Positions 9,715-39,668 of a DNA stretch of 42,468 bases are shown piece after piece. Where the stretch lies: contig JARRKU010000065.1 of assembly GCA_037387725.1 (NCBI GenBank), positions 7,008-49,475 of the forward strand, given 5' to 3'. The number at the start of each line of letters is the position of its first letter. Position 1 is the stretch's first letter. This DNA is from Desulfobacteraceae bacterium. Lineage in GTDB: Bacteria > Desulfobacterota > Desulfobacteria > Desulfobacterales > Desulfosarcinaceae. Position numbers and translations under genes: made by a program. The notes beneath the pieces are model-generated. The model saw nothing but the letters and a program-made list of their open reading frames with translations. It was not told the DNA's origin and searched no databases.

Positions 9715-10770
9715 CTAAATGTTGGCACCATCGATCAAACCCAGCTTGAGCGCCCTTTTGCGCCATTGCTCCCGCGCCATGGCCTGCATGTCTTCGACGG
9801 TATCGATCTCGTCCACGATCTCCAACCCCAGCAGGGTTTCGATAAAATCTTCCATGGTGACAACGCCCTGAGTGCCGCCATATTCATCCACCGCCAGGGC
9901 GATATGGGCTTTTTCATCCATCAGGCGTTCAAACAACCGATGCAGGGGCAGCGCCTCGGGGATCACCACCAAAGGACGGCGCATCTCGGAGAGCAGGGCA
10001 GCGCCTTTCTTTTCCTGTCCGGCCCGTAGAATTTCATTCTTGAGCACAAAGCCGGTGATCTGGTCGAGGTTCTCCCCGTATACCGGTATTCTGGAAAAGG
10101 GCAAGTGGCTGTGCAGGGAAAGGGTTTCGTCCACGGACAGGTTTTCCGACAAGGCGAAGAGAACCGTACGCGGTGTCATGATATCGCTGGTGCGCACCTC
10201 GCGAAAGCAGAAGAGATTGTTGAGAATGCGCGATTCGTATTTGTGAAAGACCCCTTCCCGGGCACCGAGCTGGGCCAGGGCGATAAACTCGTCCCGGTGG
10301 ACCTTGGACCGCTCCCTGCCCTTGGTGAGCCATCGGGTGAGGGTATCGGCCAGTTTCACAAGGGGATACATGATCCAGATCGTGACCTCCAGCAGACGCA
10401 CAACCGAAGGGGTGAGCCGTCGCCAATAGGCTGCCCCCAGGGTTTTGGGGATAATTTCCGAAAAGACCAGAATGAGAAAGGTCAGGACCGCCGATATCAG
10501 ACCGATATAAGCGTCCCCGAAAACAGCGGCCGCCTGGGCGCCGGCGCCGGCCGCTCCCACGGTATGGGCAATGGTATTCAAGCTTAAAATAGCGGCCAGC
10601 GGTTGATCCACATTATCTTTGAATTTTCGCAGCCGGGTCCCCAACCGAAGGCCTTCCTGCTCCTGCCGCGCCACGAAGGATGGCGAAACGCTGAGCAGCA
10701 CCGCCTCCATGATAGAGCAGAGAAAAGAGAAACCCAGGGCCAGTGCCATGTATACCAACAGTAGTGTCAT
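9715..10770 (-). CDS. CNNM/CorC-type transporter-associated protein (DUF21 membrane domain plus CBS pair; no CorC_HlyC C-terminal domain)
   Basis: N-terminal 4-TM DUF21 region followed by two CBS-like segments. Its start overlaps the mscS stop (ATGA), implying translational coupling. Confidence 0.85.
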   Translation of the reverse strand: MTLLLVYMALALGFSFLCSIMEAVLLSVSPSFVARQEQEGLRLGTRLRKFKDNVDQPLAAILSLNTIAHTVGAAGAGAQAAAVFGDAYIGLISAVLTFLILVFSEIIPKTLGAAYWRRLTPSVVRLLEVTIWIMYPLVKLADTLTRWLTKGRERSKVHRDEFIALAQLGAREGVFHKYESRILNNLFCFREVRTSDIMTPRTVLFALSENLSVDETLSLHSHLPFSRIPVYGENLDQITGFVLKNEILRAGQEKKGAALLSEMRRPLVVIPEALPLHRLFERLMDEKAHIALAVDEYGGTQGVVTMEDFIETLLGLEIVDEIDTVEDMQAMAREQWRKRALKLGLIDGANI

Positions 10771-11843
10771 TTCTTTGAAGTCTTCCTCTTTTCGTCATCG
10801 GTTTTGAGCATCTCATCCACCGCTTCAATGCGTTTTTCGATCCTTTCCATGGCCGCTTCGATCTTCTTCACAGCTTCGGCCTGGGATGGGTCCTTGGCTT
10901 TATGCAAGGCACTGCGCTTTTGGGCCAGCGCGTCCAGCTTTTCCTGCAATTGCCGTCGCTCCTGGGCGATCTCCGCCTTGTCGAAAATCAGATCACCGGG
11001 AAGCGCTTCTGATTCTTCACTCGGGCCTTGGAGCGGACCGATGGCCGGTGGAATCATGGCGACATCGTCGGCCAGCACCCGCTGGTTCATAAAATTGGGC
11101 GAAACGATTTCGATCCCGGCGCCGTGGAGCCCATTCAGGACAGCCCGTTTGAGCTTGGACTGCATGGCCAGCAATTGCTTGGACTCGTGTAGAAAGCCGG
11201 ATATTTTATAGGTGATGGAAAAATCTCCCAACTTCAGAATTTGTGAGAACGGCTCTTCCAGCCCCGTCTGTTCAGCCGCCGCAATCAGCAACGGTTCGAC
11301 CTGCTGATGGGGCACATCATAGCCCAGGGAGAGGGTGGCCGACACCACCGTACCCGAGGAACGTACCACCGTCAGCGGGTTGGTAATCAGATAGAGGTTG
11401 GGGAAGGTCGTCAGGTCCCGTTCGGCCGTCTGGATTTCGGTATGGAACAAACCCCGTTCGGTGATTCGGCCGAACATGCTGTTGACGCGAATAAAATCAC
11501 CGGCTTTGTAATTGCGGATCAACCGCAGCATAAATCCGGCAAGGGCGTTGGTGACAAAGGTGGTGGAGGAGAGGGCGATGATACCGGTAAAGACAACCCC
11601 GAACAGGCCCAGCACCTGCCCCCTTGTTTCCGCCTCAATGGGCAGCAACAGCAACAGGATCAGTACACCGACCACGGCGATCGCCACTATCAGAAACTGG
11701 GGTAGCAAGGTGCGCCTGTAGTCGGCGGAGAGCCGCTGCTTGGCGGCTAAGATGCTCATGGATTTGAGCAGGACCAGCAGGACGATCAGAACGCAGGCTG
11801 CCGGCAGATAGCGATACAATTCATCCATCAGGGGATTGGACAT
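10767..11843 (-). CDS. MscS-family mechanosensitive channel with C-terminal coiled-coil tail
   Basis: 3 N-terminal TM helices, an MscS beta-domain signature, and a charged coiled-coil C-terminus. Confidence 0.85.
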   Translation of the reverse strand: MSNPLMDELYRYLPAACVLIVLLVLLKSMSILAAKQRLSADYRRTLLPQFLIVAIAVVGVLILLLLLPIEAETRGQVLGLFGVVFTGIIALSSTTFVTNALAGFMLRLIRNYKAGDFIRVNSMFGRITERGLFHTEIQTAERDLTTFPNLYLITNPLTVVRSSGTVVSATLSLGYDVPHQQVEPLLIAAAEQTGLEEPFSQILKLGDFSITYKISGFLHESKQLLAMQSKLKRAVLNGLHGAGIEIVSPNFMNQRVLADDVAMIPPAIGPLQGPSEESEALPGDLIFDKAEIAQERRQLQEKLDALAQKRSALHKAKDPSQAEAVKKIEAAMERIEKRIEAVDEMLKTDDEKRKTSKK

Positions 11844-12017: not shown

Positions 12018-12857
12018 TCATCGACTCAGATCGACTTGCTGCCCTTCGGCTCTCCCCAGTATGGCCAGTACGCTGTCGATGAGTTGCCGGCGGTTGGCCG
12101 TCACCTCTGAAGCGCCCAGCCCAATAAGTTCGCCTTTTCTGCGCACGGCCCACTGGCTGGCATATACGATCACCGGTGGACCGCCGTGAACGATCGACGG
12201 GTGTTTTAGAAATGAGACGCCGGCCGTTTGAGAGCTGTCCGATGAGTGGGCCCTGCCAAGATCGGTAATCACAAGATCGTAGCTCTCATTTGCAAGCTGA
12301 TCGACGGCTTCGGACGTGGACACAACGTTGTCAAAGACAATACCGTGCGGCCTGAGCGTCTTGCGTTCGATCTCGTTGTTGGCGGGCAGATCATCCACCC
12401 ATAACACACGTGCGGCACGCCTGGGGATGGTCGCAAGAACCGGGATCGCATCGACGAGCGCTGAAACATCGTCTGAAAAAGATTCCCGGCGGAGGAAATA
12501 GGCGTCCCGTTTGGTGAACCACCGCAGCTCGGCCGGCAGGTCTGCATCGGACGGTATCCGGCCCCCGTCCACAAGAACAGGGACCACCGCCACACCATGA
12601 AAGCGGGCACGCCGCCATTCGTATGCCACGACGCAGGTTGCTTCCTTCAGCCGGGCGACGTCAAATGATGGACCGATCATGGACAACATAACGTTGGCCC
12701 TTGAAACCGCATTGCGGATCTCCTGGGGATAAAGGTCGCCGCCGCTTATGCTGCCGGTGTCGACAAATGCATTGTGGCCCGCACCGCTCAGCGCGAATCC
12801 AACGGCATGGGCGGCAAAGAGCGTGTCCGCCCGTTGGTAGGACACAAAAACCTCCAT
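12018..12857 (-). CDS. TIR-domain protein fused to a CheY-like receiver (REC) domain
   Basis: ATG 12857 with RBS AAGGAG 7 nt upstream. N-terminus MEVFVSYQRAD...GDLYPQEIRNAVSRANVML...AYEWRRA is a bacterial TIR_2-like start. C-terminal half (VLWVDDLP...YDLVITDL...VIVYAS...K) has the acidic pocket, phospho-Asp, Ser/Thr and Lys of a receiver. Confidence 0.7.
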   Translation of the reverse strand: MEVFVSYQRADTLFAAHAVGFALSGAGHNAFVDTGSISGGDLYPQEIRNAVSRANVMLSMIGPSFDVARLKEATCVVAYEWRRARFHGVAVVPVLVDGGRIPSDADLPAELRWFTKRDAYFLRRESFSDDVSALVDAIPVLATIPRRAARVLWVDDLPANNEIERKTLRPHGIVFDNVVSTSEAVDQLANESYDLVITDLGRAHSSDSSQTAGVSFLKHPSIVHGGPPVIVYASQWAVRRKGELIGLGASEVTANRRQLIDSVLAILGRAEGQQVDLSR

Positions 12858-13145
12858 GGTGTCACTCCTTCGCATAACTTGGTCCTTTTTCGCCAATCCG
12901 TTACCATCCTTTATAGGAAGCTGACGCGTCTACCCACACCCCATGTCTGCCCAATCGTTGCATGATAAAGTGGTAAATGGCTTGCAAAGCCACATGGCCG
13001 ACCCAACAATTTTGGCCGACACCACAACTTCGAACCGATGTTTTTGTAGGGCGGGGCTCCGTACCCAGCACAACTGTCTGCGATGGCGTACCCTTGCCGC
13101 CGTATTCTGGCGTCCTCCATCGGCAGCGCAGCATCGAACGATGTC

Positions 13146-13541
13146 TTATTCCAAACTAAAGCCAACCACCTTTCCGTGCGAAAGACTCAAGCTCCCCAAT
13201 AATTGATATTTATCCCCTGAGATATGCACCTTCCATAAATGTCTTCGCATGCCGATACTTTTTATATCCCCGAGATATTCGAGTTGATACCCTTTTTCTA
13301 TTTTCGCACTTCGCTGCAGGATCAGAGAATCAAACGTATATTCATCCATAAAGGACTTAAATGCTTCATTTCCATGCTTGATGAACGCTTGGTGATTTTT
13401 GATTCTCAGTGCCTCCATTTGGAAGATCATCAGCTTTTCAACAGTCTCCGCTGATTCATCCTGTGCTGAAACTGTGTTTAGGGACAAGAGCAGGGACAAA
13501 AGAACCAAAATTGATGGCAAAAAGATCTTATCGAACCGCAA
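13146..13541 (-). CDS. Secreted hypothetical protein (signal peptide), AT-rich
   Basis: MRFDKIFLPSILVLLSLLLSLNTVSAQ signal peptide. Composition differs from neighbouring genes. Confidence 0.5.
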   Translation of the reverse strand: MRFDKIFLPSILVLLSLLLSLNTVSAQDESAETVEKLMIFQMEALRIKNHQAFIKHGNEAFKSFMDEYTFDSLILQRSAKIEKGYQLEYLGDIKSIGMRRHLWKVHISGDKYQLLGSLSLSHGKVVGFSLE

Positions 13542-13585: not shown

Positions 13586-14120
13586 TCACAGGGCAAGGAT
13601 CATGACATTCCTGCGTGTGCCTGCCGTCTTTACAAATTGAAACCCCGCCTTCTCAAATGTTGAGACAAAACCCATAAACGTGTAACTCGGCGAGTCATGT
13701 GCAACAGGATAGGCTTCGATGTATCGGGCGCCGTTGTCCCTGGCATATTGAACGGCCGCATCTATCAGCCGCGATGTAATGCCCCTGTTTCTGAAGGGAC
13801 GTTTGATAAAAAAGCAGACCAAAGACCATACGCGATCTTTAGCTTCGTCTCCACCCAACGATCTGTAAGTATCGCGCGGAGCGATCGAACACCAGCCAAT
13901 CGGTTCATCTTCGAAGTAGGCAAGCAGCCCGATGGGCACACCGCGATGGACAAGGTCGCAAATCGAAGCCTTCCTGCCCGCTTTTCCGGATATCGTTGTT
14001 TTTGTAGGTATTGATCCGCCAAGCCATGCACCAGCAATAATGGGGGCCGCCCCTGCTTTCAAATAGCTGCTCGAAATCACTCCAGCGATCGGGTGTAACG
14101 GGATGGAAGTCGGGGTTCAT
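13586..14120 (-). pseudogene. GNAT-family N-acetyltransferase split by a frameshift
   Basis: N-terminal part (MNPDFHPVTPDRWSDFEQLFESRGGPHYCWCMAWR) is in the frame of ORF 13905-14120. The GNAT core (RNRGITSRLIDAAVQYARDNGARYIEAYP) is in the frame of ORF 13586-14080. The overlap contains a T5 run at about 13993-13997. Confidence 0.55.
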
Positions 14121-15466: not shown

Positions 15467-15700
15467 ACGGCTATTTCCTTACGCTAAAGTTCACACGGCC
15501 GCCAGCCAATCCAAACGGCTGAACATCACAAATCCCGCTTCAACGATTGGCGGACACCAGTGGCCCAAAATGCCATCATAAGCCTGTTTGCGACTGCTCC
15601 CGCACCTATGGCATCGGCTTCTTTCCGGTTAAACAAATTTAATGGCAACGAAACTAATATGCTATCATTTGAACGGATTTCAAGTATTTTAAAATGCCTA

Positions 15701-16087
15701 TCATCTGATCAAATTAAGACAGTTAAGGCATTTGTATCGCTTTCTAAAAATAAAGATCGGCAATCCCGATAAAAGCGTCAGGGCCGCCGCTTTTCTTGTC
15801 CAATTGATCAAAACCAAATTCAGGGATCCGCATTTATTGCAACGCTCATCATCTGAAATCTCCGGAAATGGAATCCTCTCTAAAGCACTTGAACAATCCG
15901 TATTAAGAACTTTTTGCGCATCCTCGAAGTCGGATTCCAAGATTCGAAGTTTAACGCCACCTATTGCAAGAGAGATGGTCCATTGCATATTGATATGATG
16001 ATCACCAACGACCCATGAAGGTATGCCCTCATATTCCAACCGTGACTTGGCCAGATAAGCCAATGGCGGGTCGATAAATGACCTCAA
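15701..16087 (-). CDS. DUF2007-like putative signal-transducing protein with C-terminal CxxC...CxxC zinc ribbon
   Basis: LAYLAKSRLEYEGIPSWVV...GGVKLRILESDFEDAQKVL matches DUF2007. The C-terminus has CNKCG...CLNC. Confidence 0.55.
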   Translation of the reverse strand: MRSFIDPPLAYLAKSRLEYEGIPSWVVGDHHINMQWTISLAIGGVKLRILESDFEDAQKVLNTDCSSALERIPFPEISDDERCNKCGSLNLVLINWTRKAAALTLLSGLPIFIFRKRYKCLNCLNLIR

Positions 16088-16227
16088 TGTGATAAGCCGA
16101 TAATGCTTTCTATCGATAGCGCTTTTTCCTTACAAGTTCACTTAATGATTTCAGCAATTGTTTTTTAGGCCGAAATCAATTGAAAACAACAGCATCATTG
16201 CCATTGCACTACTTCGAACCATACAAC

Positions 16228-16731
16228 TTACCGCCCCAGCTTTTCTGCGTCCGTTGACGTTTCTTGTCTGACATTGATTTTCTCCTGGATAGCTTCAACG
16301 AATTTCTTATCCAACCCATTCTCACTGGAAACCGGAAAGCTAATTTCCATTTCTGATGATGTGGTTACCATGACATAGGAATCATCCCAAAACGAATCGT
16401 CATACTGCACGACTAGAGATACGATTTGATCAAAGGGAATGATCGTCTCGGGTTCTTCCCAGCTGCTTGAATATGCGATCAGATTTCTGTCCGTTACGAA
16501 ATAGAGGCCTGTCTTGATATCAAACAAGGCATCAGAATAGAAGTATCTGATTTGCTCATCTTCCTGGAGCAGGTTGAGCGACCTTATCGTCTTCATATAT
16601 TTCTTGGGAATTTGACGGCCCGGATACACCGCCGTATCAGGCCCACTAAATAGAATTGTGACAAATGCAATGAATATCAGCCCGATAATGGAGACACAGC
16701 CTAACCCTGTGTACTTCAGAGTCTTATTCAT
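16228..16731 (-). CDS. Membrane-anchored hypothetical protein
   Basis: N-terminal TM anchor (GLGCVSIIGLIFIAFVTILF). AT-rich. No known family recognised. Confidence 0.5.
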   Translation of the reverse strand: MNKTLKYTGLGCVSIIGLIFIAFVTILFSGPDTAVYPGRQIPKKYMKTIRSLNLLQEDEQIRYFYSDALFDIKTGLYFVTDRNLIAYSSSWEEPETIIPFDQIVSLVVQYDDSFWDDSYVMVTTSSEMEISFPVSSENGLDKKFVEAIQEKINVRQETSTDAEKLGR

Positions 16732-16921
16732 TTATTCCTTTCTTCCTGCCCCCGAAAGCGGACTGTTCACAGAACCATAATTAATAGCGCACAAGGATGC
16801 AAAAGCCCCTCATCCGAGAATTGTAACAAGTTGATCATCTGCATTGATCGATCACCTATTTTTCGAAATATTTTTGAACAGTGTCGATTAGTGGTCCTCG
16901 CTGTCCTTCACCATCGGGTTG

Positions 16922-17320
16922 TTACGCGTCGTTTTTTCCATACACCACAAGGGATCCGACAGCAAAATCGTGAATTGCTCTTTTATTTCTCGAGAATGGA
17001 ATTGTAAAAAATGAAAGCAACCCCAGGACAATTTTTACGATTATTCGCAAATAAGCCTGAACGATGGATATTTTCTCTCCTGTTGAAAATTTCCGGATTC
17101 GGATACCCGTAACTTTTTGACCGAGCGTGCAATAAAAGGCCGTAAAGATCGGTTCGTAAACAAAAAACATAAAGAGTATGATAATGATTCTTACGTTTAT
17201 TGCAGTGGCGTTTTCGCTATCCAAAATATAAGAAGATAGAAAAAGCATACCGATTATGAACAAACCATCAATGAATGTAGATAAATATCTCCTGAGAATA
17301 CCAGGATGTACGATCTCCAT
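16922..17320 (-). CDS. RDD-family membrane protein
   Basis: RRYLSTFIDGLFI... with 3 TM and a C-terminal RAIHDFAVGSLV motif typical of RDD. Confidence 0.6.
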   Translation of the reverse strand: MEIVHPGILRRYLSTFIDGLFIIGMLFLSSYILDSENATAINVRIIIILFMFFVYEPIFTAFYCTLGQKVTGIRIRKFSTGEKISIVQAYLRIIVKIVLGLLSFFTIPFSRNKRAIHDFAVGSLVVYGKNDA

Positions 17321-17419
17321 ATTTGAAAATTCCTTTATTTACGATTAAAAATATAAGGCGAACGAAAGGCGGAGACGCGCGTCTTCTTTGCGTGCTGTGT
17401 CTCAAGCGACATGTGCCAT

Positions 17420-17995
17420 TCATTCATTATTAATTAATTTCAGCTGTTTATAGACATCATCCAAGGTAATAACCTCGTTTTCCCGAGGAGGATCGATTTT
17501 AATTGAATCGCCAGTTGTGAAGACCGTTGTTACATATCCTTCAATTATCTCAATCTGTGATGATAACTTTCTAACTGAAGGATCTAACGAAGACTCCTCC
17601 TTAACAAGTTCAACATCACACCCCATATAATAAACCTGCAATGAAAAAACACCTATGGGTGCCGGAAACCTGAATCCTGTTTCTACAATATACGGAGGAG
17701 AATCACCGTAAGGAAAAATGTCCTCGGATAAAAACTTCTCGCTATTTAAATACACGACCAAATGGCATGATGACGGTGGGGAAGGTTTCCACTTATCTGC
17801 TTCCTCCGGGGGTAAGTCTTTTGGTTTTTCTATTGAGGGTATCTGATCATCGAACAGTTCAACTTCGACCCAACCATGCGGTTGTGAGGTAATATATGCT
17901 TTCCGGCTTTCGCTGATATTGGCAACAACTTTTTTTGCACAGCCCAGCACCGTCAGCATGATGCAGAAAATAATTACGATATGCTCAATCTTCAT
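17420..17995 (-). CDS. Hypothetical lipoprotein
   Basis: Signal peptide with lipobox VLGCAK. No known domain. Confidence 0.55.
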   Translation of the reverse strand: MKIEHIVIIFCIMLTVLGCAKKVVANISESRKAYITSQPHGWVEVELFDDQIPSIEKPKDLPPEEADKWKPSPPSSCHLVVYLNSEKFLSEDIFPYGDSPPYIVETGFRFPAPIGVFSLQVYYMGCDVELVKEESSLDPSVRKLSSQIEIIEGYVTTVFTTGDSIKIDPPRENEVITLDDVYKQLKLINNE

Positions 17996-18049
17996 GCTAT
18001 CTCCATTGTGATTAAAAGGACCTAATAACCGGCGAGTATGCGAATCCGA

Positions 18050-18853
18050 TTAATTTTCTTGTTGGACGGCAACGGATCGACATCTTAGTTTAAACCCATT
18101 TGCTTTTGCGTCTGCAGTTATTGCAGTTGCCACTCTAGTGGCCTTCTCATATGTTGGAGTGGAAATTAGTATGCCACCATTCGTATGAATATCAAGCATC
18201 ATTGAGATTGCATCTTCTTGGGTCATGTTCAGGTGGGTCGTTAAGCTGGATACCACAAATTCCATTGTCGTGTTATTGTCATTTAGAATCTCTATACCTG
18301 TTGTAAAATCTGGCGGCATGAAACCCTGAAGCTGCGTCAGCCGAGTTTTTGAGGAAAACGTAGCTGATGTGTCAGGATAAGAGTAATGCCGTCCACGCAC
18401 TCGGTTAGCCAGTAGCTTCCACAGCAAATAGCCATCTGTCCCGAAATCATCGCCATGGCGTTTATGGGGAATGAGATTCAATACAAGAACTATACCATTC
18501 GCAATAGTGAAAGTTATGACTAAGCATGTACCGAAAATCGAAGTTGGATTTCCAAAGATAATTAGATAGGAAGCGGTACCGAGAAGCAGTAGCGCCTGCG
18601 CCAATATACCTGCAGAAGAAAATGCTATTGCTGTAATGAAATTAGGTGGAGGCTCTGTTATACATAAACCACCTGCACCTGAAATCTCTAAGCTAAAAAC
18701 CTTTAGCCCCAAAATACGAGCTGCAGATGCATGTCCTAGTTCATGAAGAATAATGAGCAGGGTGTACGCGATACAGAAATAGATCGTTTCAGGAATTGCA
18801 AACTTTATAATAATATAGATCAGCAATCCTGCTGCTGGGACCGACCAGAGCAC
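18050..18853 (-). CDS. M50-like (site-2-protease type) membrane metalloprotease fused to a C-terminal ClpS-like domain. Start uncertain.
   Basis: HELGHA in a TM helix plus NLIPHKRHGDDFGTDG (the NxxPxxxxDG motif). The C-terminal ~80 aa (ILNDNNTTMEFVVSSLTTHLNMTQEDAISMMLDIHTNGG...) follows the ClpS adaptor pattern. The long ORF (to 19111) overlaps the upstream SLT gene, so the start is probably the internal GTG at about 18853. Confidence 0.6.
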   Translation of the reverse strand: MLWSVPAAGLLIYIIIKFAIPETIYFCIAYTLLIILHELGHASAARILGLKVFSLEISGAGGLCITEPPPNFITAIAFSSAGILAQALLLLGTASYLIIFGNPTSIFGTCLVITFTIANGIVLVLNLIPHKRHGDDFGTDGYLLWKLLANRVRGRHYSYPDTSATFSSKTRLTQLQGFMPPDFTTGIEILNDNNTTMEFVVSSLTTHLNMTQEDAISMMLDIHTNGGILISTPTYEKATRVATAITADAKANGFKLRCRSVAVQQEN

Positions 18854-18912
18854 ATAAACTGGTATATCTTTTAGAAATGTAATTTTTACCGCAGAATTTG
18901 CAAATCGCCGCG

Positions 18913-19512
18913 TCAGCTTTTGCGGTAGATGCGAAAGGCCCGCATTACTTTTCGGACGTAGCGTTGGGTTTCCGGGTAGGGGGGAATATCGTTGTACTTT
19001 TCCACGGCCGTGGGGCCGGCATTGTAAGCGGCCAGTGCCAGGTCGACCTGCCCGCTGAAGCGTTCCAACATGGTCTTGAAATAGAAGGCGCCGCCCATGA
19101 TGTTCTCCCACGGGTCGAAAGGATCGTTGATATTAAGCTTATCCAGATTCTCCGGCATGATCTGCATCAGGCCCAGGGCCCCTTTTTTGGAGACGGCTCT
19201 GGGATTGAAGTAGGATTCCACATGGATGACGGCTTTAAGCAGGGAGGAGGAGAGGCCGTTGCGCGCGGCCGCCTCTGATATGACGTCGTCGTAGTTTTTG
19301 ATGTTGTAAAGGGCGCTGCGGTATTTGGAAGGTTCCGGCATATACACTTTGTACTTGCTGGAGGTGGGTGTGTTGGTGAAATGCAGCACTCCCTGGCTGT
19401 CCACGTATAGATAGATATCCGCTTGTGCGGCGGAAGTGACAAAAAGCGTCACCCCGATGACAATAAGCTTAAGCGTCCATTTGATCCGTTTGTTTGCAGA
19501 ATGCTTTTCCAT
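18913..19512 (-). CDS. Lytic transglycosylase (SLT domain), secreted
   Basis: Signal peptide. SLT motifs ES...GLMQIMP and AAYNAGP. Confidence 0.85.
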   Translation of the reverse strand: MEKHSANKRIKWTLKLIVIGVTLFVTSAAQADIYLYVDSQGVLHFTNTPTSSKYKVYMPEPSKYRSALYNIKNYDDVISEAAARNGLSSSLLKAVIHVESYFNPRAVSKKGALGLMQIMPENLDKLNINDPFDPWENIMGGAFYFKTMLERFSGQVDLALAAYNAGPTAVEKYNDIPPYPETQRYVRKVMRAFRIYRKS

Positions 19513-21027: not shown

Positions 21028-22001
21028 TCGACCGCCAGCGTTTCCTTGCAGACCTGGGCCCATATGGCGAGGTGCTGTATGATGCCGCCCGGAATGCCTT
21101 GAATAGGCCTGATGGCAGGAGCGCCGCCCTGGAGCAGCTTCTGACGGAGCTGCCCGATGCCGATCCCTCCTTGTTCGCGCTCGACCGGGACAGCGTCACC
21201 ATCGGCCGAAAAGCGGATCTAAACCCGGACCAGGCCGGCCGGCTGGAAGGGGTGCTCAAAGGGCTCAAGCCATGGCGCAAAGGCCCGTTCACCCTTTTCG
21301 GCATCGACATCGACAGCGAGTGGAACTCGGCCCTCAAATGGCGACGGGTGGCGCCGAATATCGATCCGCTGCACAACCGCAAAGTGCTTGATGTGGGCTG
21401 CAGCAACGGGTATTATCTTTTTCGAATGGCGGCAGCGCAACCGCGCCTTTTGCTCGGCATCGAACCCTACAAGGCCTACTACCACCAGTTTCTGGCCCTG
21501 CAGCACTATCTCCACCTGCCCGGCACCTACTGCCTGCCGCTCCGATTGGAAGATCTGCCCGAGATGAACGCATGGTTCGACGCTGTTTTTTGCATGGGCA
21601 TTCTCTACCATCGGCGGTCCCCATTGGACACCTTGACCCGATTGAGGCAGATGCTGACCGACAACGGCCAACTCATTCTGGAGACCCTGATTCTTCCCGG
21701 CGAAGGGGAGACGGCGCTTTGCCCCCGGGACCGTTATGCCCGCATGCGAAACGTCTTTTTCATCCCTACTGTGAAATGTCTGCAAACCTGGTTGGAACGG
21801 TGCGGATTCGACCGCATCCGATGCGTGGACGTCACGCCCACCACCTTTGAAGAACAGCGCAAGACGGCATGGATCGATTCCAACTCGCTGGAGACGTATC
21901 TTGATCCCCGCGACGGCACCCGCACGGTGGAAGGCTATCCGGCCCCCGTTCGTGCCGTGGTGATTGCCTCACCTAATCAGACAAGGATTTCGCGGACGTG
22001 A
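21024..22001 (+). CDS. cmoB: tRNA U34 carboxymethyltransferase
   Basis: 325 aa from ATG 21024, with VLDVGCSNGYY and CmoB-specific N-terminal region. Confidence 0.9.
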   Translation: MIDRQRFLADLGPYGEVLYDAARNALNRPDGRSAALEQLLTELPDADPSLFALDRDSVTIGRKADLNPDQAGRLEGVLKGLKPWRKGPFTLFGIDIDSEWNSALKWRRVAPNIDPLHNRKVLDVGCSNGYYLFRMAAAQPRLLLGIEPYKAYYHQFLALQHYLHLPGTYCLPLRLEDLPEMNAWFDAVFCMGILYHRRSPLDTLTRLRQMLTDNGQLILETLILPGEGETALCPRDRYARMRNVFFIPTVKCLQTWLERCGFDRIRCVDVTPTTFEEQRKTAWIDSNSLETYLDPRDGTRTVEGYPAPVRAVVIASPNQTRISRT

Positions 22002-22906
22002 CCTTCTCATTCTGGATGTTGCTGCTGATCTTTCTAGGTGCGGGCATCTGGGGCCTTCGCCGGTTCCATAATCAGGCGCGAAGCGTTCAGCGGCTCAAAG
22101 TATCGCTGGAGAAGACCAACCGCCGCCTCCATGCTGCAGAGGAAGAGTACCAGAAAGCCTACGAAAAATGGGAGAACGATCAATCCAAATTGCGCAACTA
22201 CCTGCAGCTGATGGATACGCTATTCAACACCATCCCTAATCCCATTTATTTCAAGGACGAAGATGGCGTTTATCATGGCTGCAACCGGGTATTCTCCAAA
22301 CGGATACTAGGGTTGACCCGGGACCGCATCATCGGCCGTCGCCCTCAGGAGCTGTCCGAACAAATCCCTGCGGACCTGGCGGCGGTCTATCAACGGGAAG
22401 AGGCCAGGATGATTGAAAAAGCAGGCCCCCACGCATTCGAGGCGCCGGTCCAGCAGGCGGATGGACTTCGGCGTGACTATCTCTTCAGTCTGGCGCCGGT
22501 CACCGATGATGAGGGAAAATTCTACGGCAGTGTCGCCGTCCTCTACGACCTCACCGAAAAGAACCGCGCCACACGGGATCGGCTGGAAAAAGAAAAATTG
22601 GAGAGCGTTTTGGAAACAGCCGGGGGCGTCTGCCATGAATTGAATCAGCCCCTGCAAGCCGCTTCCGGCTATGCGGAGATCATGGCGGCCCATCTAACCG
22701 ATACCAAGGCTGCCGGATATGTTGAAAAACTCACCGACCAGCTCGACCGCATGCGCGATATCACCGACAAGCTTCAGGGCATTACCCGGGTGGAGGTGAC
22801 CGAATACGCCGGCGACACCAGGATTATCGATATTCACAAGTCATCGGAAAAGTCCAATGACGCCGAAAGAAGGACAAAGGCCAAAGATGTCGAGCAAAAA
22901 ACGTAA
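21998..22906 (+). CDS. Membrane-anchored PAS-domain protein with a HisKA-like dimerisation/phospho-acceptor region but no HATPase domain
   Basis: N-terminal TM, coiled coil, then a PAS fold (IYFKDEDGVYHGCNRVFSK). H-box CHELNQPLQAASGY. The C-terminal remainder is only about 70 aa, too short for an ATPase. GTG 21998 overlaps the cmoB stop (an alternative ATG is at 22016). Confidence 0.65.
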   Translation: MTFSFWMLLLIFLGAGIWGLRRFHNQARSVQRLKVSLEKTNRRLHAAEEEYQKAYEKWENDQSKLRNYLQLMDTLFNTIPNPIYFKDEDGVYHGCNRVFSKRILGLTRDRIIGRRPQELSEQIPADLAAVYQREEARMIEKAGPHAFEAPVQQADGLRRDYLFSLAPVTDDEGKFYGSVAVLYDLTEKNRATRDRLEKEKLESVLETAGGVCHELNQPLQAASGYAEIMAAHLTDTKAAGYVEKLTDQLDRMRDITDKLQGITRVEVTEYAGDTRIIDIHKSSEKSNDAERRTKAKDVEQKT

Positions 22907-23231
22907 AGCGCGGGAAGCATTGCAGCGCCGCATTGCACGCATCAGGGCCATGGAACATATCGACACGCGGGATAGCAGTGTAACACCGCCGTTCGGGTCT
23001 GTGATGGCGGATCAAAAAGCCCTGGCCCACAACAACACCTACGACCGCCTGCCGGTTTTTTATATGGACCGGGTCTTTGTCTGCCGGGATTGCGGCAGGG
23101 AGGAAATCTGGACCGCCGAACAGCAAAAATGGTGGTATGAGCAGGCCAAAGGCAACATCAACGCCACTGCGGTGCGGTGCAGGCCGTGCCGAACAAAAAG
23201 AAAGAAAAGCGGACAAGGGGAGCAGCCGTAA
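22887..23231 (+). CDS. Zinc-ribbon domain protein (CxxC...CxxC)
   Basis: ATG 22887. CRDCGREEIWTAEQQKWWYE...CRPCR. Its stop overlaps the next start (TAATG). Confidence 0.55.
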   Translation: MSSKKRKAREALQRRIARIRAMEHIDTRDSSVTPPFGSVMADQKALAHNNTYDRLPVFYMDRVFVCRDCGREEIWTAEQQKWWYEQAKGNINATAVRCRPCRTKRKKSGQGEQP

Positions 23232-29497: not shown

Positions 29498-31132
29498 ATG
29501 AAAACAACCGCCATCGGGCTTCTGGGCCCCACCTTGGATACCGGCAAACGCGAATCCCGCTGGGAGCGATGGCGCCCCACCGTCGGGTTGTGCCAGCAGA
29601 AGGATCTGACCATCCACCGCTTCGACCTGCTCTACCAGACCCGTTTCAAGGGCCTGATGCAGCGGGTGTCGGAAGATATCCGCATGGTGTCGCCGGAGAC
29701 CGAAGTGGTGCCGCATCCCATCACCTTCCGCGATCCGTGGGACTTTGAAGAGGTCTTCGGCGTGCTGCACGACTTTGCCTCGGCCTACGCCTTCGACCCG
29801 GAAAATGAAAAATACCTGGTGCACATCTCCACCGGCAGCCATGTGGCGCAGATCTGCCTCTTTCTCCTCACCGAAGCGCGCTACTTTCCGGCCCGCCTGG
29901 TGCAGACCGGCCCGGTTAAAAAGGTTCGGGGTGCCGATCCGGCGGGCACCCATACCATCATCGATCTCGATCTTTCGCGTTACGACCAGCTGTCCGGACG
30001 GTTTCAAAATGAGCTGGACGACGATCTCTCTTTTTTGAAATCAGGCATCGCCACCCGCAACCCCGGCTTCAACCGTCTGATCGAAAAAATCGAGCGGGTG
30101 GCCATGCAGTCGGTGGACCCCATCCTGCTCACCGGCCCCACCGGCGCCGGCAAATCGCGACTGGCCCGGCGCGTGTATGATTTGAAAAAGGCGCGCCACC
30201 AGCTGGCAGGGGAATTCGTCGAGGTCAACTGCGCCACCTTGCGCGGGGATGCGGCCATGTCCGCCCTGTTCGGGCATAAGAAAGGGGCCTTCACCGGCGC
30301 ACTTCAGGACCGGCCGGGGTTGCTGCGGGCCGCCGACGGCGGCATGCTCTTTCTGGATGAGATCGGCGAGCTGGGGCTCGACGAGCAGTCCATGCTGCTG
30401 CGGGCCATCGAGGAGAAGACCTTTCTGCCCATGGGATCGGACCGGGAGGTCCGCAGCGACTTTCAATTGATCTGCGGCACCAACCACGAACTCGAGCGGG
30501 ATGTGCAAAAGGCAAGGTTCAGGGAGGACCTGCTGGCCCGAATCAACCTGTGGACCTTTCGCATGCCGGGGCTGCGGGACCGCAGCGAAGACATCGAGCC
30601 CAACCTCGATTACGAACTGGATCAGTTTGCCCGCAGGACCGGGCGGCGGGTGACCTTCAACAAAGAGGCCCGCCGTCGCTTTCTCGACTTTGCCGTCGCT
30701 CCTGCCGCCGCATGGCGGGCCAACTTCCGCGACCTCAACGGTGCGGTCACCCGCATGGCCACCCTGGCCCCGGGCGGGCGCATCACCCTTGCCGAGGTGG
30801 AAGAGGAAAAAGTCCGATTGCGCACCGACTGGAGCACTATCGCCCGTCCCATTGAGCGGCGGCGATCCTACCTGGCAGCTATCCTGACAGAAGAACAGCA
30901 GGCGGCCATCGATCCCTTCGACCGGGTCCAGCTGGAAGAGGTGCTGCGGATCTGCCGTGCATCGCGCAATCTGTCCGAAGCGGGGCGCCGCCTGTTTGCC
31001 GTATCGCGGCTGGCCAAGAAAAAGCCCAACGACGCCGACCGGTTGAGAAAGTACCTGGCCAGATTCGGCTTGAAGTGGGATGACATTACGGCGCCTGCCG
31101 TTGATCAGGCCACCCCTTTGAAACAGGCTTAG
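29498..31132 (+). CDS. rtcR: RtcR-like sigma54-dependent transcriptional activator (N-terminal CARF-type domain, AAA+ sigma54 module with GAFTGA, C-terminal HTH)
   Basis: N-terminus MKTTAIGLLGPTLDTGKRESRWERWRPTVGLCQ parallels the RtcR CARF domain. Walker A GPTGAGKS, GAFTGA loop, and C-terminal HTH (NLSEAGRRLF). Confidence 0.85.
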   Translation: MKTTAIGLLGPTLDTGKRESRWERWRPTVGLCQQKDLTIHRFDLLYQTRFKGLMQRVSEDIRMVSPETEVVPHPITFRDPWDFEEVFGVLHDFASAYAFDPENEKYLVHISTGSHVAQICLFLLTEARYFPARLVQTGPVKKVRGADPAGTHTIIDLDLSRYDQLSGRFQNELDDDLSFLKSGIATRNPGFNRLIEKIERVAMQSVDPILLTGPTGAGKSRLARRVYDLKKARHQLAGEFVEVNCATLRGDAAMSALFGHKKGAFTGALQDRPGLLRAADGGMLFLDEIGELGLDEQSMLLRAIEEKTFLPMGSDREVRSDFQLICGTNHELERDVQKARFREDLLARINLWTFRMPGLRDRSEDIEPNLDYELDQFARRTGRRVTFNKEARRRFLDFAVAPAAAWRANFRDLNGAVTRMATLAPGGRITLAEVEEEKVRLRTDWSTIARPIERRRSYLAAILTEEQQAAIDPFDRVQLEEVLRICRASRNLSEAGRRLFAVSRLAKKKPNDADRLRKYLARFGLKWDDITAPAVDQATPLKQA

Positions 31133-31528
31133 AGCAGCAGGAAAGCCCAATGCCGCTCCTGATGCAGCCATGGTTTTTGTCGTATTGACAAGCCGTATCG
31201 GCTATGATTTTCTAGATAAACAGCAGACGGTCCGCTCCTTCGATCTCCTTCGACACCGGCAGCCGTTGCTTTTCCCTGCTCACCGGAGCAAGTGCAGCCG
31301 TTCTCTGCAAAACGGGGGGGTCTCGCCTGCCGCAGCATCGGAACTGCTGCAATCCCATATCGAGAAAATCGACCCGGCAAGGGCTGTTACGGCCTTGCCG
31401 TAGCATCCATATTCATAACGCCGCGCGCGACCGGGAGCCCTTTGCTTTTCTGCGAACCGCTGCCGGCCGGCGGATCGGTAATGGTTTGCCTTTGGTGCGT
31501 CGGCATGGAGAAAAGGGAGGTATCGGAA

Positions 31529-33408
31529 ATGGCAGAGAACCAAGCGGCGATGGACAAGAGTCTGGACCCGGCCGTACGGCAGATGATCGCCAAGGCGCAG
31601 GACCAGGAGGTGAGCACGGTGTGGGACCGCTATGCGGCCATGACCCCCCAATGCAGTTTCGGCGACACGGGCTTGTGCTGTCGCCACTGCCTGCAGGGGC
31701 CCTGCCGCATCGATCCCTTTGGTGAAGGCCCCCAAACCGGCATCTGCGGCGCCAACGCCGACGTGATGGTGGCCAGGGGGCTCGACCGGGCCATTGCGGC
31801 CGGCACGGCGGCCCACTCGGGACATGCCCGCCATCTGGCCCACACCCTGAAAAAGATGGCCCAGGGAAAGACCGAAGCCTATACGATCAAAGATGGCGAC
31901 AAACTAAGGGCTGTGGCCGCACGGCTCAACATTGACGTGGAGGGCCGCCAGGAGAGCGAGATCGCCCTGGATGTGGCCGATGCGGCCCTGGCCGATTTCC
32001 ACGAAAAGGAGACCCCTGTGCTCTGGGCAGCCACAGTGGTCAACGAGGAACGGGCCAAGGTGCTCACCGACCTCAACCTGGTGCCCGTGGGCATCGACCA
32101 CGAAGTCTCCGAAATCATGCACCGCACCCTCTACGGCGTGGACGCGGATCCGGTCAACCTGCTCATCGGCGGGCTGCGATGCGGGGTGGCCGATCTGGCC
32201 GGTTGTTACATGGGCACCGACCTGGCCGATATCCTCTTCGGCGTTCCCCAGCCCACCATGACCGCCGCCAATCTGGGCACCCTGAAGGCCGATGCGGTCA
32301 ACATCGCCCTGCACGGCCACAATCCGGTGCTCTCCGATCTGCTGGTCACCTCCGCCGAAGCCAAGCAGGATGCGGCGCGCGCGGCCGGCGCCTCCGGCAT
32401 CAACCTGGTGGGGATCTGCTGCACGGGCAACGAGGTGATGATGCGCCACGGCATCCCGGCCTGCACCCATTCGGTGAGCCAGGAGATGGCCATCATGACC
32501 GGCGCCCTGGACGCCATGGTGGTGGACTACCAGCCGGCACCGAGATCATCACCACCATGGATATCGCCAAGATCAGCGGCGCCACCCATGTGGACTTCAG
32601 CGAAGAGCTGGCCGGTCCCAAGGCGTATGAGATCTTCGACAGGGCCATCGACAACTTCAAACGGCGGCGAAACAAAGCCGTGGACATACCGGATGTCAAG
32701 ACCCCGGTGATGGCCGGCTTCTCGGTAGAGGCCATCGTAGCGGCGCTCTCCAAACTGGACGCCAACGAGCCCCTCAAACCGGTGGTGGACCACCTCAAGG
32801 CGGGCAATATCCGCGGGGTCTGCCTCTTTGCCGGCTGCAACAACGTGAAGGTGGCCCAGGACAGGAACTTCATCCATATCGCCAGAAAACTGCTCAAAGA
32901 GAACGTGCTGGTGGTGGCCACCGGGTGCGGCGCCGGCGCATTGATGCGCCACGGCTTCATGGACCCGGCCAACACGGACGCGCTTTGCGGCGACGGCATC
33001 AAAGCGGTGCTCACCGCCATCGGCGAAGCCAACGGCTTGGGCGGACCGCTGCCGCCGGTGATCCACATGGGTTCCTGCGTGGACAATTCCCGGGCCGTGG
33101 CCCTCACCGTGGCCCTGGCCCAGTATGTGGGCGTCGACACCCAGCAACTGCCGGTGGTGGCTTCGGCCGCCGAAGCGGTTTCGGAAAAGGCGGTCTCCAT
33201 CGGCGCCTATGCCGTGGCGGCCGGACTGCCCACCCATGTGGGGGTGATGCTCCCGGTGCTGGGCAGCCAGCTGGTGGCCCAGGTGCTCACCGAAAAAGTC
33301 AAGGACCTGACCGGCGGCTACTTCATCGTGGACCTCGATCCGGACAGCGCCGCAGACAAGCTGCTGGCCGCCATTGACGAACGGCGGAAAGGGCTGGGAC
33401 TTGAATAA
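31529..33408 (+). pseudogene. cooS: Anaerobic carbon-monoxide dehydrogenase catalytic subunit, interrupted by a frameshift or internal deletion near 32534
   Basis: ATG 31529 with RBS AAGGGAGG. N-terminal Cys motifs (CSFGDTGLCCRHCLQGPCRI) and C-cluster region (INLVGICCTGNE). The reading frame switches between ...AMVVDYQ (frame 2) and GTEIITTMDIAK... (frame 1). The expected DYQC cysteine segment is absent. Confidence 0.75.
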
Positions 33409-37711: not shown

Positions 37712-38289
37712 CCGCAACAGAGAGGTGGCAGCGGCGGTTCGGACAAAATCAAGTCGGCCGCAGCAGCGAGATCGTCCACCACCAGGGTGGGCGATACCTG
37801 CTTGGCGGCCAGCTCCTTCTCAGCCTGGCGCCCGCAACCGGTGCGCACCAGCATGGTGGCCCCGCAACCGGCATTCTGGCCGCAAAGCACATCCTTGATA
37901 TTGTCGCCGATCATCACCGTACATGGCAGATCAATGGCGTGGGCGGTCTTGGCCTGAAAGATCATGCCGGGCTCCGGCTTGCGGCAGTCGCACTGCTCAT
38001 CGGGGTGGTGGGGGCAGTAGTAAATATCGAAGATCTTCCCCCCGGCCGCTTCAACCGCCCGGCGCATGCGGTGAAACATATCTTCCAGCACCGACAGCGG
38101 CACCATGCCCCGCCCGATAATGGACTGATTGGTAATAACGATCAAATGATATCCGGCCCTGGTCAGGGCCGCCAAAGCCTCCAGGCTGCCGGGAAGAAAT
38201 TCAAATTCCTCCCAGCTCTTGATATAATCGGGTGAGTCCCGGTTGATCACCCCGTCCCGATCCAGAAAGATTACATTTTGCAGTATCAT
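37708..38289 (-). CDS. gmhB: D-glycero-beta-D-manno-heptose-1,7-bisphosphate 7-phosphatase (HAD-IIIA)
   Basis: FLDRDGVIN HAD motif I, CxC zinc site (CDCRKPEPGM), and the GDxxxD motif. RBS GGGAG. Confidence 0.85.
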   Translation of the reverse strand: MILQNVIFLDRDGVINRDSPDYIKSWEEFEFLPGSLEALAALTRAGYHLIVITNQSIIGRGMVPLSVLEDMFHRMRRAVEAAGGKIFDIYYCPHHPDEQCDCRKPEPGMIFQAKTAHAIDLPCTVMIGDNIKDVLCGQNAGCGATMLVRTGCGRQAEKELAAKQVSPTLVVDDLAAAADLILSEPPLPPLCCG

Positions 38290-38549
38290 GGCTCCCGCAT
38301 TTCCGATTACAGCTTAAACCGTCCGGCAAAAGGCAACAGCGGCAATGATCAAGATCAGCCCATACCGCATGAAGCCTAAATCATTAACCCATCGAATGCA
38401 ATTATTCATCACCGTGATGGGGACACGCATAAAATCAAATAAATCGCCACCCGACCCATATGACCATCCTGTTGTGGCCCAACACCATAACCGTTAGATA
38501 ACAAATAGTTACAAATTTAACAAGATTCATGGCATAATTCTCCAACATA

Positions 38550-38570
38550 CTTATGTGTCAGACACATAAG
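38550..38570. promoter_or_regulatory. Perfect 10-1-10 palindrome (candidate operator)
   Basis: CTTATGTGTC-A-GACACATAAG in the AT-rich region between gmhB and the first cassette ORF. Confidence 0.4.
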
Positions 38571-38797
38571 TGCGTAATTTAAACATATTGTTGCACTCAA
38601 ACGGATTATCAAAAGGCATAGCAGGGCTATGGAGTGGGACTTTAGATCGATTGAACCACTCGATTATTCAGAGAATATATGATGTAGGCGTGAATCAACC
38701 TTACCGATCTTGGCCTTATAGCGATAAAAAGCAAAATTTTTCCATAATATTGTTGTATATTCCGCAAGAATATCACACAATCATAACAAATACAGAC

Positions 38798-38876
38798 AAT
38801 TAACAAAAAATTGCACTCAATTGCGATTCAGCCGTCTTATCAAAAAGCAGCTGCGGCAGAATCTATAATGTTAAGT
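38798..38876 (+). repeat. attC/attI-like recombination site preceding the first cassette ORF
   Basis: Inverse-core-like AATTAAC (38798-38804), then 65 bp, then core GTTAAGT (38870-38876) 8 nt before ATG 38885. The reverse complement of the core (ACTTAAC) equals the inverse core of the next site. Confidence 0.4.
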
Positions 38877-38884
38877 TTCAAAGT

Positions 38885-39565
38885 ATGAATATACCTTTGA
38901 CATATTATTTTGAATACTGGTTTAAGAATTCTTTGCTGGCTTTGTTAACCGGCTTTTTAATTACTTTTCTAATTCCGCCTTTGTTAGCGGCATTGCCATT
39001 GTTTGGCCTAATTCTGTTTTTAATGTATCAGATGATTATATATCGACATTTTTGGGGAAAAAGGAGAGGAGATTTTGAGTTCTCTTCTAAGGAAAATCTT
39101 ATAAAGAGGAAGATTAATTCCTTTATAAAACAGCAGCTTGGAATAGGGGAATTGATACGTTATAAATTAGACCACCTAAACAGCATTATTACCTATGGAT
39201 GGGATATGTATCATAAGCTTGCGCGACGGTCAGAAAATCAAGATGAAATTTTTCATTATTTCTTAAATTTAATTGGAGCTGATCTTTCTCGAAAGGAAGG
39301 TGACTTTAAAAAGGAACGGGAATATCTAATAAACGCAGTATTAGCGTCCCCAGATGATACAGTATCTAATTTTCGACTTGCAGTTACATTTGAGCAAGAG
39401 GGACGATCTGACGAGTCAGTAAATTATTATAGAAAGGCTTTAGAGGCTTCCTCAATTGATACGCCTGAGCTCAAAGAGTTTATAATGGGTCAAATTACCC
39501 GTGTAATTGAAAAAGGCCCAGCCAAAAGCCCGCCAGTCCCGGGGTTGAGGTTTATGTCATGGTAA
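38885..39565 (+). CDS. Cassette ORF 1: 2-TM protein with TPR-like C-terminal region
   Basis: 226 aa, AT-rich. A hydrophobic hairpin (LLALLTGFLITFLIPPLLAALPLFGLILFLM) followed by a soluble helical domain. Confidence 0.5.
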   Translation: MNIPLTYYFEYWFKNSLLALLTGFLITFLIPPLLAALPLFGLILFLMYQMIIYRHFWGKRRGDFEFSSKENLIKRKINSFIKQQLGIGELIRYKLDHLNSIITYGWDMYHKLARRSENQDEIFHYFLNLIGADLSRKEGDFKKEREYLINAVLASPDDTVSNFRLAVTFEQEGRSDESVNYYRKALEASSIDTPELKEFIMGQITRVIEKGPAKSPPVPGLRFMSW

Positions 39566-39578
39566 TGGGAAAAAGGAA

Positions 39579-39650
39579 ACTTAACCATGCCTTTCACTCG
39601 GATGGCAATTCCGCTGCGCTACATTGCCACCGGTGAAGGCGGCGTTATCT
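39579..39650 (+). repeat. attC-like site 1
   Basis: ACTTAAC...imperfect palindrome with bulges (GCCTTTCACTCGGATGGCAAT / ATTGCCACCGGTGAAGGCGG)...GTTATCT. Starts 14 nt after the ORF1 stop. Next ORF starts at 39669. Confidence 0.5.
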
Positions 39651-39668
39651 TCGTAAGGTGGAGGAACT

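Follow-up and report, generated by a model that had tools for sequence, protein, structure and literature searches.

Receiver domains have been described alongside immune effectors in several bacterial systems. Detocs is a three-gene operon in which DtcA is a kinase, DtcB a buffer receiver and DtcC carries an N-terminal canonical receiver (Rousset et al. 2023, bioRxiv 10.1101/2023.01.24.525353). Cam2, an effector of type III CRISPR loci that joins a transmembrane (TM) module to a C-terminal receiver (REC) domain, has no histidine kinase and has been proposed to sense cyclic triadenylate (cA3) (Hoikkala et al. 2024, PMC11229360). Moreover, kinase-less receivers of conflict systems have been predicted to be nucleotide-responsive switches (Kaur et al. 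2020, 2021; PMC7159879, PMC8195603), and cRec has been defined as a kinase-independent, receiver-like phosphoesterase linked to NAD and ADP-ribose (ADPR) enzymes (Iyer et al. 2021, 2022; PMC7824862, PMC9503650). Here we analyse a gene of a Desulfobacteraceae bacterium whose product, 279 aa long, fuses a TIR domain to a receiver-like domain. The gene lies on a 42,468-nt stretch of contig JARRKU010000065.1, referred to as the window throughout, and had been singled out in a reading made from the DNA letters (hereafter the sequence-only reading). We found no description of a TIR-REC fusion family in the literature searched, and a survey paper on TIR domains does not mention receivers. TIR NADases hold a central place in the immunity of bacteria, plants and animals, and what triggers each of them is an open question. 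In the compact proteins of the family analysed here, a TIR domain with its catalytic residues in place is joined to an apparently kinase-independent domain of receiver fold.

The gene is a single open reading frame (ORF) on the minus strand, 279 codons and a stop. The same frame extends to a TTG at 12896 (ORF 12018-12896, minus strand); this longer start is unlikely because a Shine-Dalgarno sequence, AAGGAG, sits 7 nt 5′ of the ATG at 12857. The homologues, of which at least 379 match in length, nearly all fall at 278-283 aa, and this together with the AAGGAG spacing therefore identifies the 279-aa protein as the product. An exact-sequence look-up showed it to be identical to NCBI MEJ2156882.1, 'MAG: TIR domain-containing protein [Desulfobacteraceae bacterium]' (MAG, metagenome-assembled genome), and the TIR half is therefore publicly annotated already. 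Relatives have been named 'CheY-like chemotaxis protein' by JGI.

Profile and fold searches bear out the architecture that had been read from the letters, and the motifs quoted at the time (VFVSYQRAD, AYEWRRA, VLWVDD, YDLVITDL and VIVYAS) are all present. The only Pfam families detected in the window protein are TIR_2 and Response_reg. The match to TIR_2 spans aa 3-117 (E=1.6e-10, 41.9 bits against a cutoff of 28), and TIR_2 is matched by 18/18 sampled relatives. Moreover, the family profile matches the TIR chains of SARM1 and TIR-1 in the PDB (E=3e-5), and SARM1 is the nearest TIR by sequence as well as by structure, at ~18% identity between SARM1 / TIR-1 and the TIR half of the 279-aa protein. 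A second, degenerate receiver at the N-terminus was considered and is rejected on these matches. In HMMER alignments, E80 pairs with the Glu of the HKE motif in C. elegans TIR-1 and SARM1, so that the conserved Glu proposed in AYEWRRA holds, and G40 pairs with the BB-loop Gly of the same two proteins (A-G-K-F loop). The equivalent of E80 is the catalytic Glu of human SARM1, E642, and that of G40 is the site of the SARM1 G601P mutant that was crystallised. The Trp that stands four residues before the Glu in SARM1 (DWVHKE) is Val in the 279-aa protein. Each of E80, G40, S6, Y7, D11 and D33 is invariant in 120/120 aligned family members. From these alignments, the TIR domain is most likely a glycohydrolase/cyclase that cleaves NAD+. 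Many TIR domains are adaptors (PMC7075850), and a TIR that is a protein-interaction adaptor only, in a protein that is a signalling scaffold, would be an alternative; against it, the predicted catalytic Glu and the BB-loop Gly align with those of SARM1 and TIR-1 and do not vary in the family, and we regard it as extremely improbable. Relatives of the TIR half were found fused to EAD1, TPR, FGE-sulfatase and trypsin-NACHT modules, which are typical conflict-system architectures.

The C-terminal domain has the (βα)5 receiver fold. In the window protein, Response_reg scores 22.9 bits against a gathering threshold of 30.2 and aligns over the first half of the profile only; the same family was detected in 18/18 relatives (best E=8e-8), and scores of 44-65 bits were obtained for some distant members of the clade. 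The family profile matches PDB receivers at E=1e-6, and the nearest PDB sequences are receivers of hybrid kinases. Response_reg_2 and HEF_HK-type elements (PF19192 / PF19191) were also considered and have no Pfam match in the window protein. A MAFFT alignment with CheY, Spo0F and PhoB agrees with HMMER alignments to FleR and 7qz2, and places D155/D156 in register with D12/D13 of CheY and D199 with D57, each Asp being present in 120/120 members. The receiver hallmarks claimed in the sequence-only reading were an acidic pair, an acceptor Asp and a conserved Lys. The pair and the acceptor stand, and the Lys does not: the K109 position in the β5-α5 loop is N255 (Asn in 57, Asp in 33, Ser in 22 and Lys in 1 of 120), the K-P-F loop is 3 residues shorter after it, and none of the clade members aligned with CheY, Spo0F and PhoB has Lys there. 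The T87 position at the end of β4 is A233 (Ala in 117/120; A/S/T/G across the wider clade). As aligned, the domain keeps three of the five residues of the receiver signature; the other two, T/S87 and K109, are lost family-wide. These two residues couple phosphorylation to the conformational switch of receivers, and their loss is typical of phosphorylation-independent atypical receivers.

Constraint within the receiver-like domain is concentrated on the acceptor-pocket face and not on α4-β5-α5, the output surface of classical receivers, because in an 18-sequence alignment 36/65 positions (55%) are invariant across aa 149-213 against 14/57 (25%) across aa 214-270; the figure for the TIR domain is ~26%. 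The stretch aa 149-213, which covers β1, α1, β2-α2 and β3 with the loop that follows, is the most invariant of the protein, and its most constrained surface is the pocket face formed by the β1-α1 segment 'DDxPxNNxxER' and the β3-α3 loop 'DLGRxxSSDxS'. In the AlphaFold2 (AF2) model the confidence score (pLDDT) drops below 50 at residues 203-209, and with the invariance of SSDxS after D199-L-G-R this suggests a flexible, functionally important loop. It is also a possible site of Ser/Thr phosphorylation, given the TIR-REC-FHA relatives described below and a kinase-like neighbour at locus L007. One may suppose that the C-terminal domain is a pseudo-receiver scaffold, a constitutive dimerisation or oligomerisation module in a protein controlled by transcription or by an inhibitor encoded elsewhere. 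The T and K loss of atypical receivers and the lack of a partner gene would both fit. However, the three Asp, R202 and the NN/ER motif of α1 are invariant (120/120) and no part of the protein is more conserved than the pocket face, and a functionless pocket is hard to reconcile with this; such a scaffold is distinctly unlikely.

An exhaustive profile search of 1.84 billion representatives returned about ten full-length 50%-identity clusters of the 279-aa family, with 47 matches below 1e-30. Beyond the full-length clusters lie many proteins that share only the TIR or only the receiver domain. The receiver clade carries the signature LWVDDxPxNNxxER, [ST]DxGR, AG, PxIIY[ASTG] and GAxGxTxxPxEL, and its architectures include TIR-REC proteins of 316 aa, TIR-REC-FHA proteins of 446-476 aa, REC domains behind one N-terminal TM helix (200-240 aa, including 'response regulator' entries from Actinoplanes, Umezawaea and Streptomyces) or behind three TM helices (~350 aa), and tandem REC copies in WD40 or TPR giants of 1100-2000 aa. 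The clade receiver stands C-terminal to TIR or TM modules and not N-terminal to an output domain. The TM-REC relatives are equally without a linked partner or signal producer, and no cas genes were found in the neighbourhoods examined.

Family members are 60-80% identical across phyla and synonymous sites are saturated (pS 0.6-0.9 in most pairs), with non-synonymous differences of 0.1-0.27 and dN/dS of 0.05-0.3 for each domain taken separately. Both domains are under strong purifying selection. The labelled members come from Desulfobacteraceae and Cyanobacteriota MAGs, with a truncated remnant in a Verrucomicrobiae MAG, and the GC content of the gene tracks that of the host from 0.51 to 0.73. 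Saturated synonymous sites, low dN/dS and wide spread therefore describe an old, widely dispersed and strongly constrained single-gene family. The family is chromosomal. Carriage on mobile elements was considered and rejected: the receiver half had no tblastn match in 50,697 phage genomes, no full-length copy was found among 72,556 plasmids, and a pattern scan of 2.9 M viral contigs found none. These searches bear on the proposal that the receiver-like domain is itself catalytic, a phosphoesterase of the kind proposed for cRec that would process a cyclic-phosphate or ADPR-derived product of the TIR domain. In the cRec concept the receiver-like domain keeps its aspartates, is linked to NAD+/ADPR enzymes and never accompanies a kinase (PMC7824862, PMC9503650), and a parallel is seen in a receiver-like domain fused to a TIR that is an NAD+-processing enzyme by prediction. 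However, neither the window protein nor 17 relatives matched Pfam cREC_REC (PF20274), for which the positive control, ORF83 of phage rV5 (between RnlA and Sir2), scored 52.3 bits; the hhalign probability is 4.6%, and tblastn found no match in the phage genomes, where cRec is reportedly common. A catalytic receiver is, in our view, very improbable, and membership of cRec is rejected on the same profile results.

To look for a partner, we compared gene neighbourhoods. A first set of 12 homologue neighbourhoods shares nothing, even at 80% protein identity. A scan of genome contigs with the single protein gave one locus only (L001), which carries a remnant of the gene and told little about context. 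Metagenomes yielded a further 252 relatives, and 80 of these loci entered the comparison. The census comprises 98 loci in 54 independent synteny groups, 31 of them with at least 3 kb of flank, and 350 kb of non-redundant flank in which every ORF of at least 90 aa was compared all against all. No recurrent partner was found in the 54 independent neighbourhoods, and only a generic ABC-transporter family recurs in three or more groups. ORFs with histidine-kinase H-box/G1/G2 motifs occur in 2-3/54 groups, 1.2-3 kb off and never adjacent, which is about the background rate. Likewise, no cyclase and no ThsA-like, SLOG, Macro or other effector recurs beside the gene in these neighbourhoods, and PADLOC returned generic TIR and kinase-like matches only. 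The survey of homologue neighbourhoods suggested by the sequence-only reading therefore yields neither a conserved kinase nor a conserved NAD-signal effector; in the window itself, as that reading had it, no kinase or Thoeris/CBASS gene is adjacent.

The same reading had put the TIR under phosphorylation control. The invariant acceptor Asp remains in favour of this, and the idea is weakened by the T/K loss, by the lack of a linked kinase in 54 neighbourhoods and by the C-terminal placement of the receiver. In its canonical form the protein would be an orphan response regulator: D199 would receive its phosphoryl group from an unlinked histidine kinase or Hpt protein, and the receiver so modified would switch on the TIR. 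Orphan regulators are common, and the highly conserved α1 is the kinase-docking surface of classical systems. The Asp triad is invariant, Response_reg is the sole Pfam family matched by the C-terminal domain, the nearest PDB sequences are hybrid-kinase receivers, and Detocs offers a case of His-Asp phosphotransfer driving an immune effector (bioRxiv 10.1101/2023.01.24.525353). Set against these points are the Ala at the T87 position (117/120) and the near-absence of Lys at K109 (1/120) with the K-P-F loop deletion after it, the scarcity of kinase-like ORFs near the gene, the reversed domain order, and the fact that the sole kinase-like gene nearby in the window, a 302-aa PAS_4+HisKA protein, is without HATPase_c and lies 9 kb away on the other strand. 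That gene was rejected as a cognate kinase for these reasons, in line with its earlier description as ATPase-less. Its next ORF, which overlaps it by 50 nt, encodes a 124-aa zf_Tbcl treble-clef zinc finger and not a frameshifted ATPase; the PAS_4+HisKA protein may be a phosphotransfer or phosphatase-only DHp protein. On balance we consider the canonical orphan regulator unlikely.

A different possibility is that the TIR domain generates a signal, an NAD-derived messenger as made by ThsB in Thoeris, with the receiver-like domain controlling its production and an effector encoded elsewhere responding to it. There is weak similarity of the ThsB type (NCBIfam ThcB4, E=1e-4; PADLOC ThsB1, E=3e-4), and in some lineages a second TIR gene or a TIR-containing giant is nearby. 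However, the scores are far under the family cutoffs (21 bits against 220 for ThcB4), none of the candidate effectors named above recurs in 54 neighbourhoods, and the nearest TIR, that of SARM1, is an NAD+ consumer, all of which leaves a signal generator improbable. Membership of Thoeris itself was rejected, the ThsB1 match covering only 70 aa and no ThsA being found.

Taken together, these data point us, if tentatively and with slightly less than an even chance of being right, to a self-contained, chromosomal one-protein sensor-effector in which the pocket face gates TIR self-association and NAD+ cleavage. With two signature residues lost and a kinase never adjacent, the receiver-like domain is better read as a self-contained sensor than as a component of the phosphorylation switch of a classical two-component system. 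The effector would be the N-terminal SARM1-like TIR domain, cleaving NAD+, and the input module the divergent, kinase-independent receiver, which keeps the three-Asp metal/phosphoryl pocket and has lost Thr and Lys. Input would be read at the pocket face, by the DDxPxNNxxER segment and the DLGRxxSSDxS loop; candidates are small phosphodonors, metabolites or nucleotides that bear phosphate, and an unlinked partner that docks at the pocket. It would alter self-association and thereby drive the TIR domains into the assembly that catalysis needs, and the output, NAD+ depletion or an NAD-derived product, would lead to growth arrest, perhaps in a setting of abortive infection or of a stress / NAD-homeostasis response. 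Control of self-association, and hence of NADase activity, by the input module is proposed because TIR NADases require TIR-TIR assembly, receiver domains commonly signal through a changed oligomeric state, and immune effectors activated by a signal (Pycsar/CBASS) have as their standard design a TIR or TM module followed by a sensor at the C-terminus. NADase activity, the nature of the input, coupling by oligomerisation and the biological role are what we infer.

Several points weigh against this sensor-effector. The AF2 model has neither inter-domain error estimates nor oligomer information. The intact Asp triad is compatible with ordinary phosphotransfer from an unlinked kinase, and no signal-producing enzyme is linked to the family. 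Moreover, a defence gene that stays 60-80% identical across phyla would be evolving unusually slowly, and this could instead point to housekeeping signalling; the neighbourhoods, for the most part, consist of ordinary metabolic or transport genes and not of defence islands. Slow evolution and mostly non-defence neighbourhoods call for caution in naming the role 'defence'.

A wider proposal, possible but rather doubtful, is that the LWVDDxPxNNxxER…DxGR clade as a whole is an unrecognised kinase-independent sensor, in which a phosphate-bearing small molecule bound in the Asp pocket triggers N-terminal death or dormancy effectors. The ligand might be a nucleotide, an NAD derivative or a phosphodonor, the effectors would be the TIR NADase here and TM helices elsewhere, and the 279-aa fusion would by itself form a complete switch, encoded by one gene, for immunity or NAD homeostasis. 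Response to a metabolite that is universal or made by an invader, with no dedicated cyclase, could explain the 60-80% identity across phyla. Identifying the input of the 279-aa fusion would test the unproven idea of the receiver as a small-molecule sensor in immune effectors (Cam2, Aravind group) and would define a new way of gating NAD+ destruction. Strong conservation across distant phyla and the lack of a partner gene fit poorly with a simple defence-gene picture, and both make the family worth biochemical study.

Some neighbourhoods outside the window are worth recording. Conflict-like contexts occur in some loci, namely BrnT/A, a C11 peptidase with a giant protein, a second TIR gene with a MoxR-like AAA protein and DUF2201, and an IS66 transposase. 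At L012:6629-15500 (also L013-L015) the neighbours of the homologue are a clostripain-like C11 peptidase and a 2127-aa protein of conflict-system type with DUF7379, LCAT/DUF676 lipase-like, CHAT, TPR-S and TIR_2 domains. At L008:1-7996 (also L042) it starts 4 nt after three successive giant ORFs (>1109, 1830 and 619 aa) that have no Pfam or PADLOC match, an arrangement that suggests an operon with uncharacterised proteins. The Verrucomicrobiae MAG (L001:10001-10900) holds only the first 93 codons of a homologue, 81% identical. Beyond them the frame is interrupted, and what comes next, in a different frame, is a P-type ATPase (CSDQTGTLT motif); the locus represents a remnant of the gene or else a chimeric assembly. 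At L009-L011 an intact homologue comes after P-type ATPase genes.

Features of the gene and of its surroundings in the window are collected in the table below. The genes downstream on the same strand encode MscS and CNNM/CBS proteins, as the sequence-only reading had stated (mscS-corC). Its placing of the gene at the edge of an AT-rich island was loose: the gene has 59% GC and the stretch of 39-43% GC starts ~2.6 kb upstream, at ~15.5 kb. A relative about 95-96% identical (L005) is syntenic with the window (ZIP, DUF4019, TIR-REC, MscS, CNNM and TRAP). A segment of 1,070 bp directly upstream of the gene is absent from L005; within it are a 131-aa ORF whose N-terminus resembles a signal peptide and the greater part of an ORF for a GNAT acetyltransferase. 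The junction of the segment lies directly against the Shine-Dalgarno sequence that precedes the TIR-REC gene, and the window strain and L005 must therefore use different promoters. A scan for consensus promoters and terminators around the gene found nothing. The low-GC stretch further upstream (39-43% against a background of ~55%) encodes DUF2007, bPH_3 and RDD proteins, a 191-aa unknown protein and a Peptidase_M50B-ClpS fusion that is unusual in itself; it is a variable region because it is a mosaic of several blocks replaced or missing relative to L005. Elsewhere in the window, an RtcR-type sigma-54 activator (RtcR N-terminal and Sigma54_activat domains) lies beside a gene of the Prismane/hybrid-cluster family and not beside rtcBA. 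At its end the window again falls to low GC (35-44%), and this second region, in which GC skew is strongly positive and several plus-strand ORFs of 130-230 aa are found, looks like another island.

Table. Positions of the TIR-REC gene, its predicted functional residues and surrounding features in the window.
Feature	Position	Strand	Basis or remark
Complete CDS, TIR / receiver-like fusion	12018..12857	-	ORF list, exact look-up, homologue length
Shine-Dalgarno AAGGAG	12865..12870	-	read from sequence; supports 279-aa start
TIR domain, aa 1-142, including last helix 124-141 leading into receiver-like domain	12432..12857	-	
Codon E80, predicted catalytic Glu in AYEW	12618..12620	-	alignment with TIR-1 / SARM1; 120/120
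Codon G40, BB-loop Gly in FVDTGSISGG	12738..12740	-	alignment with TIR-1 / SARM1; 120/120
Divergent receiver-like domain, aa 149-268, (βα)5 topology	12054..12413	-	
Codons D155-D156, acidic pair = CheY D12/D13	12390..12395	-	120/120 each
Codon D199 = phospho-acceptor CheY D57; then invariant G201-R202 and SSDxS loop	12261..12263	-	D199, R202 120/120 each
SSDxS loop, aa 203-209	12231..12251	-	
Codon A233, at CheY T87 position	12159..12161	-	HMMER to FleR, 7qz2; MAFFT with CheY; Ala 117/120
Codon N255, at CheY K109 position; 3-residue deletion after	12093..12095	-	N 57, D 33, S 22, K 1 of 120
MscS	10767..11843	-	
CNNM/CBS	9715..10770	-	
1,070-bp segment absent from L005	12871..13939		
131-aa ORF	13146..13541		
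GNAT acetyltransferase ORF	13586..14080		
Low-GC variable region	15500..19000		
Peptidase_M50B-ClpS fusion ORF	18050..19111		
PAS_4+HisKA	21998..22906	+	
PAS_4+HisKA with following zf_Tbcl ORF	21998..23231		
RtcR-type sigma-54 activator beside Prismane/hybrid-cluster-family gene	29498..32710		
Second low-GC region	38000..42468		

Lastly, we return to the described systems. SARM1 has the nearest TIR domain and is regulated by ARM and SAM domains, in place of which the 279-aa protein carries a receiver-like domain. That domain shares with the classical receivers CheY, Spo0F and PhoB the (βα)5 fold and the equivalents of D12, D13 and D57, whereas it has Ala for T87, Asn, Asp or Ser with a 3-residue deletion at K109, and a C-terminal, orphan position; extra to the classical motifs are the W before DD, PxNNxxER on α1 and GR after the acceptor Asp. 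Like DtcC of Detocs, in which control of an abortive-infection enzyme by a receiver has a precedent, the protein joins a receiver to an effector that would destroy a metabolite. It differs in having no kinase or buffer gene, both of which Detocs needs, in its C-terminal receiver and in the loss of T and K, and membership of Detocs was rejected, since no DtcA/DtcB/DtcC genes flank the ORF and PADLOC gave no Detocs match at E<=10. The aspartates, the absence of kinases and the association with NAD+/ADPR enzymes are shared with cRec, which is mainly phage-borne, whereas the present family was not found in the phage and viral collections. The TIR effectors of Pycsar and CBASS resemble the protein only in the layout of an effector with a C-terminal sensor; no cNMP-binding or SAVED domain and no nearby cyclase was found that would place it with PycTIR or TIR-SAVED.

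Cam2 too has its effector module N-terminal to a REC fold, a layout shared by the TM-REC relatives of the present clade, and it is their nearest published analogue. The likeness is one of layout, Cam2 itself being uncharacterised, and Cam2 stands beside a cyclase-bearing Cas10 in CRISPR loci, whereas a signal producer is linked neither to the present family nor to its TM relatives. The receivers of Kaur et al. are kinase-less and occur alongside TIR, FHA, CHAT, TPR and WD40 domains, architectures that the wider relatives found here match; they are mentioned in passing as parts of multi-gene vWA-MoxR / STAND systems, and the 279-aa TIR fusion is not described there. Because Detocs, the kinase-less receivers of Kaur et al. 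(2021) and Cam2 are already published, a receiver-controlled effector is less unprecedented as a concept than the 'unusual regulatory logic' first supposed. The sequence-only observation is real apart from the Lys, and its interpretation is right on architecture and doubtful on mechanism. This is not a new kind of system: its pieces and general logic have precedents, and what is unusual is a kinase-less receiver as the proposed fused sensor.

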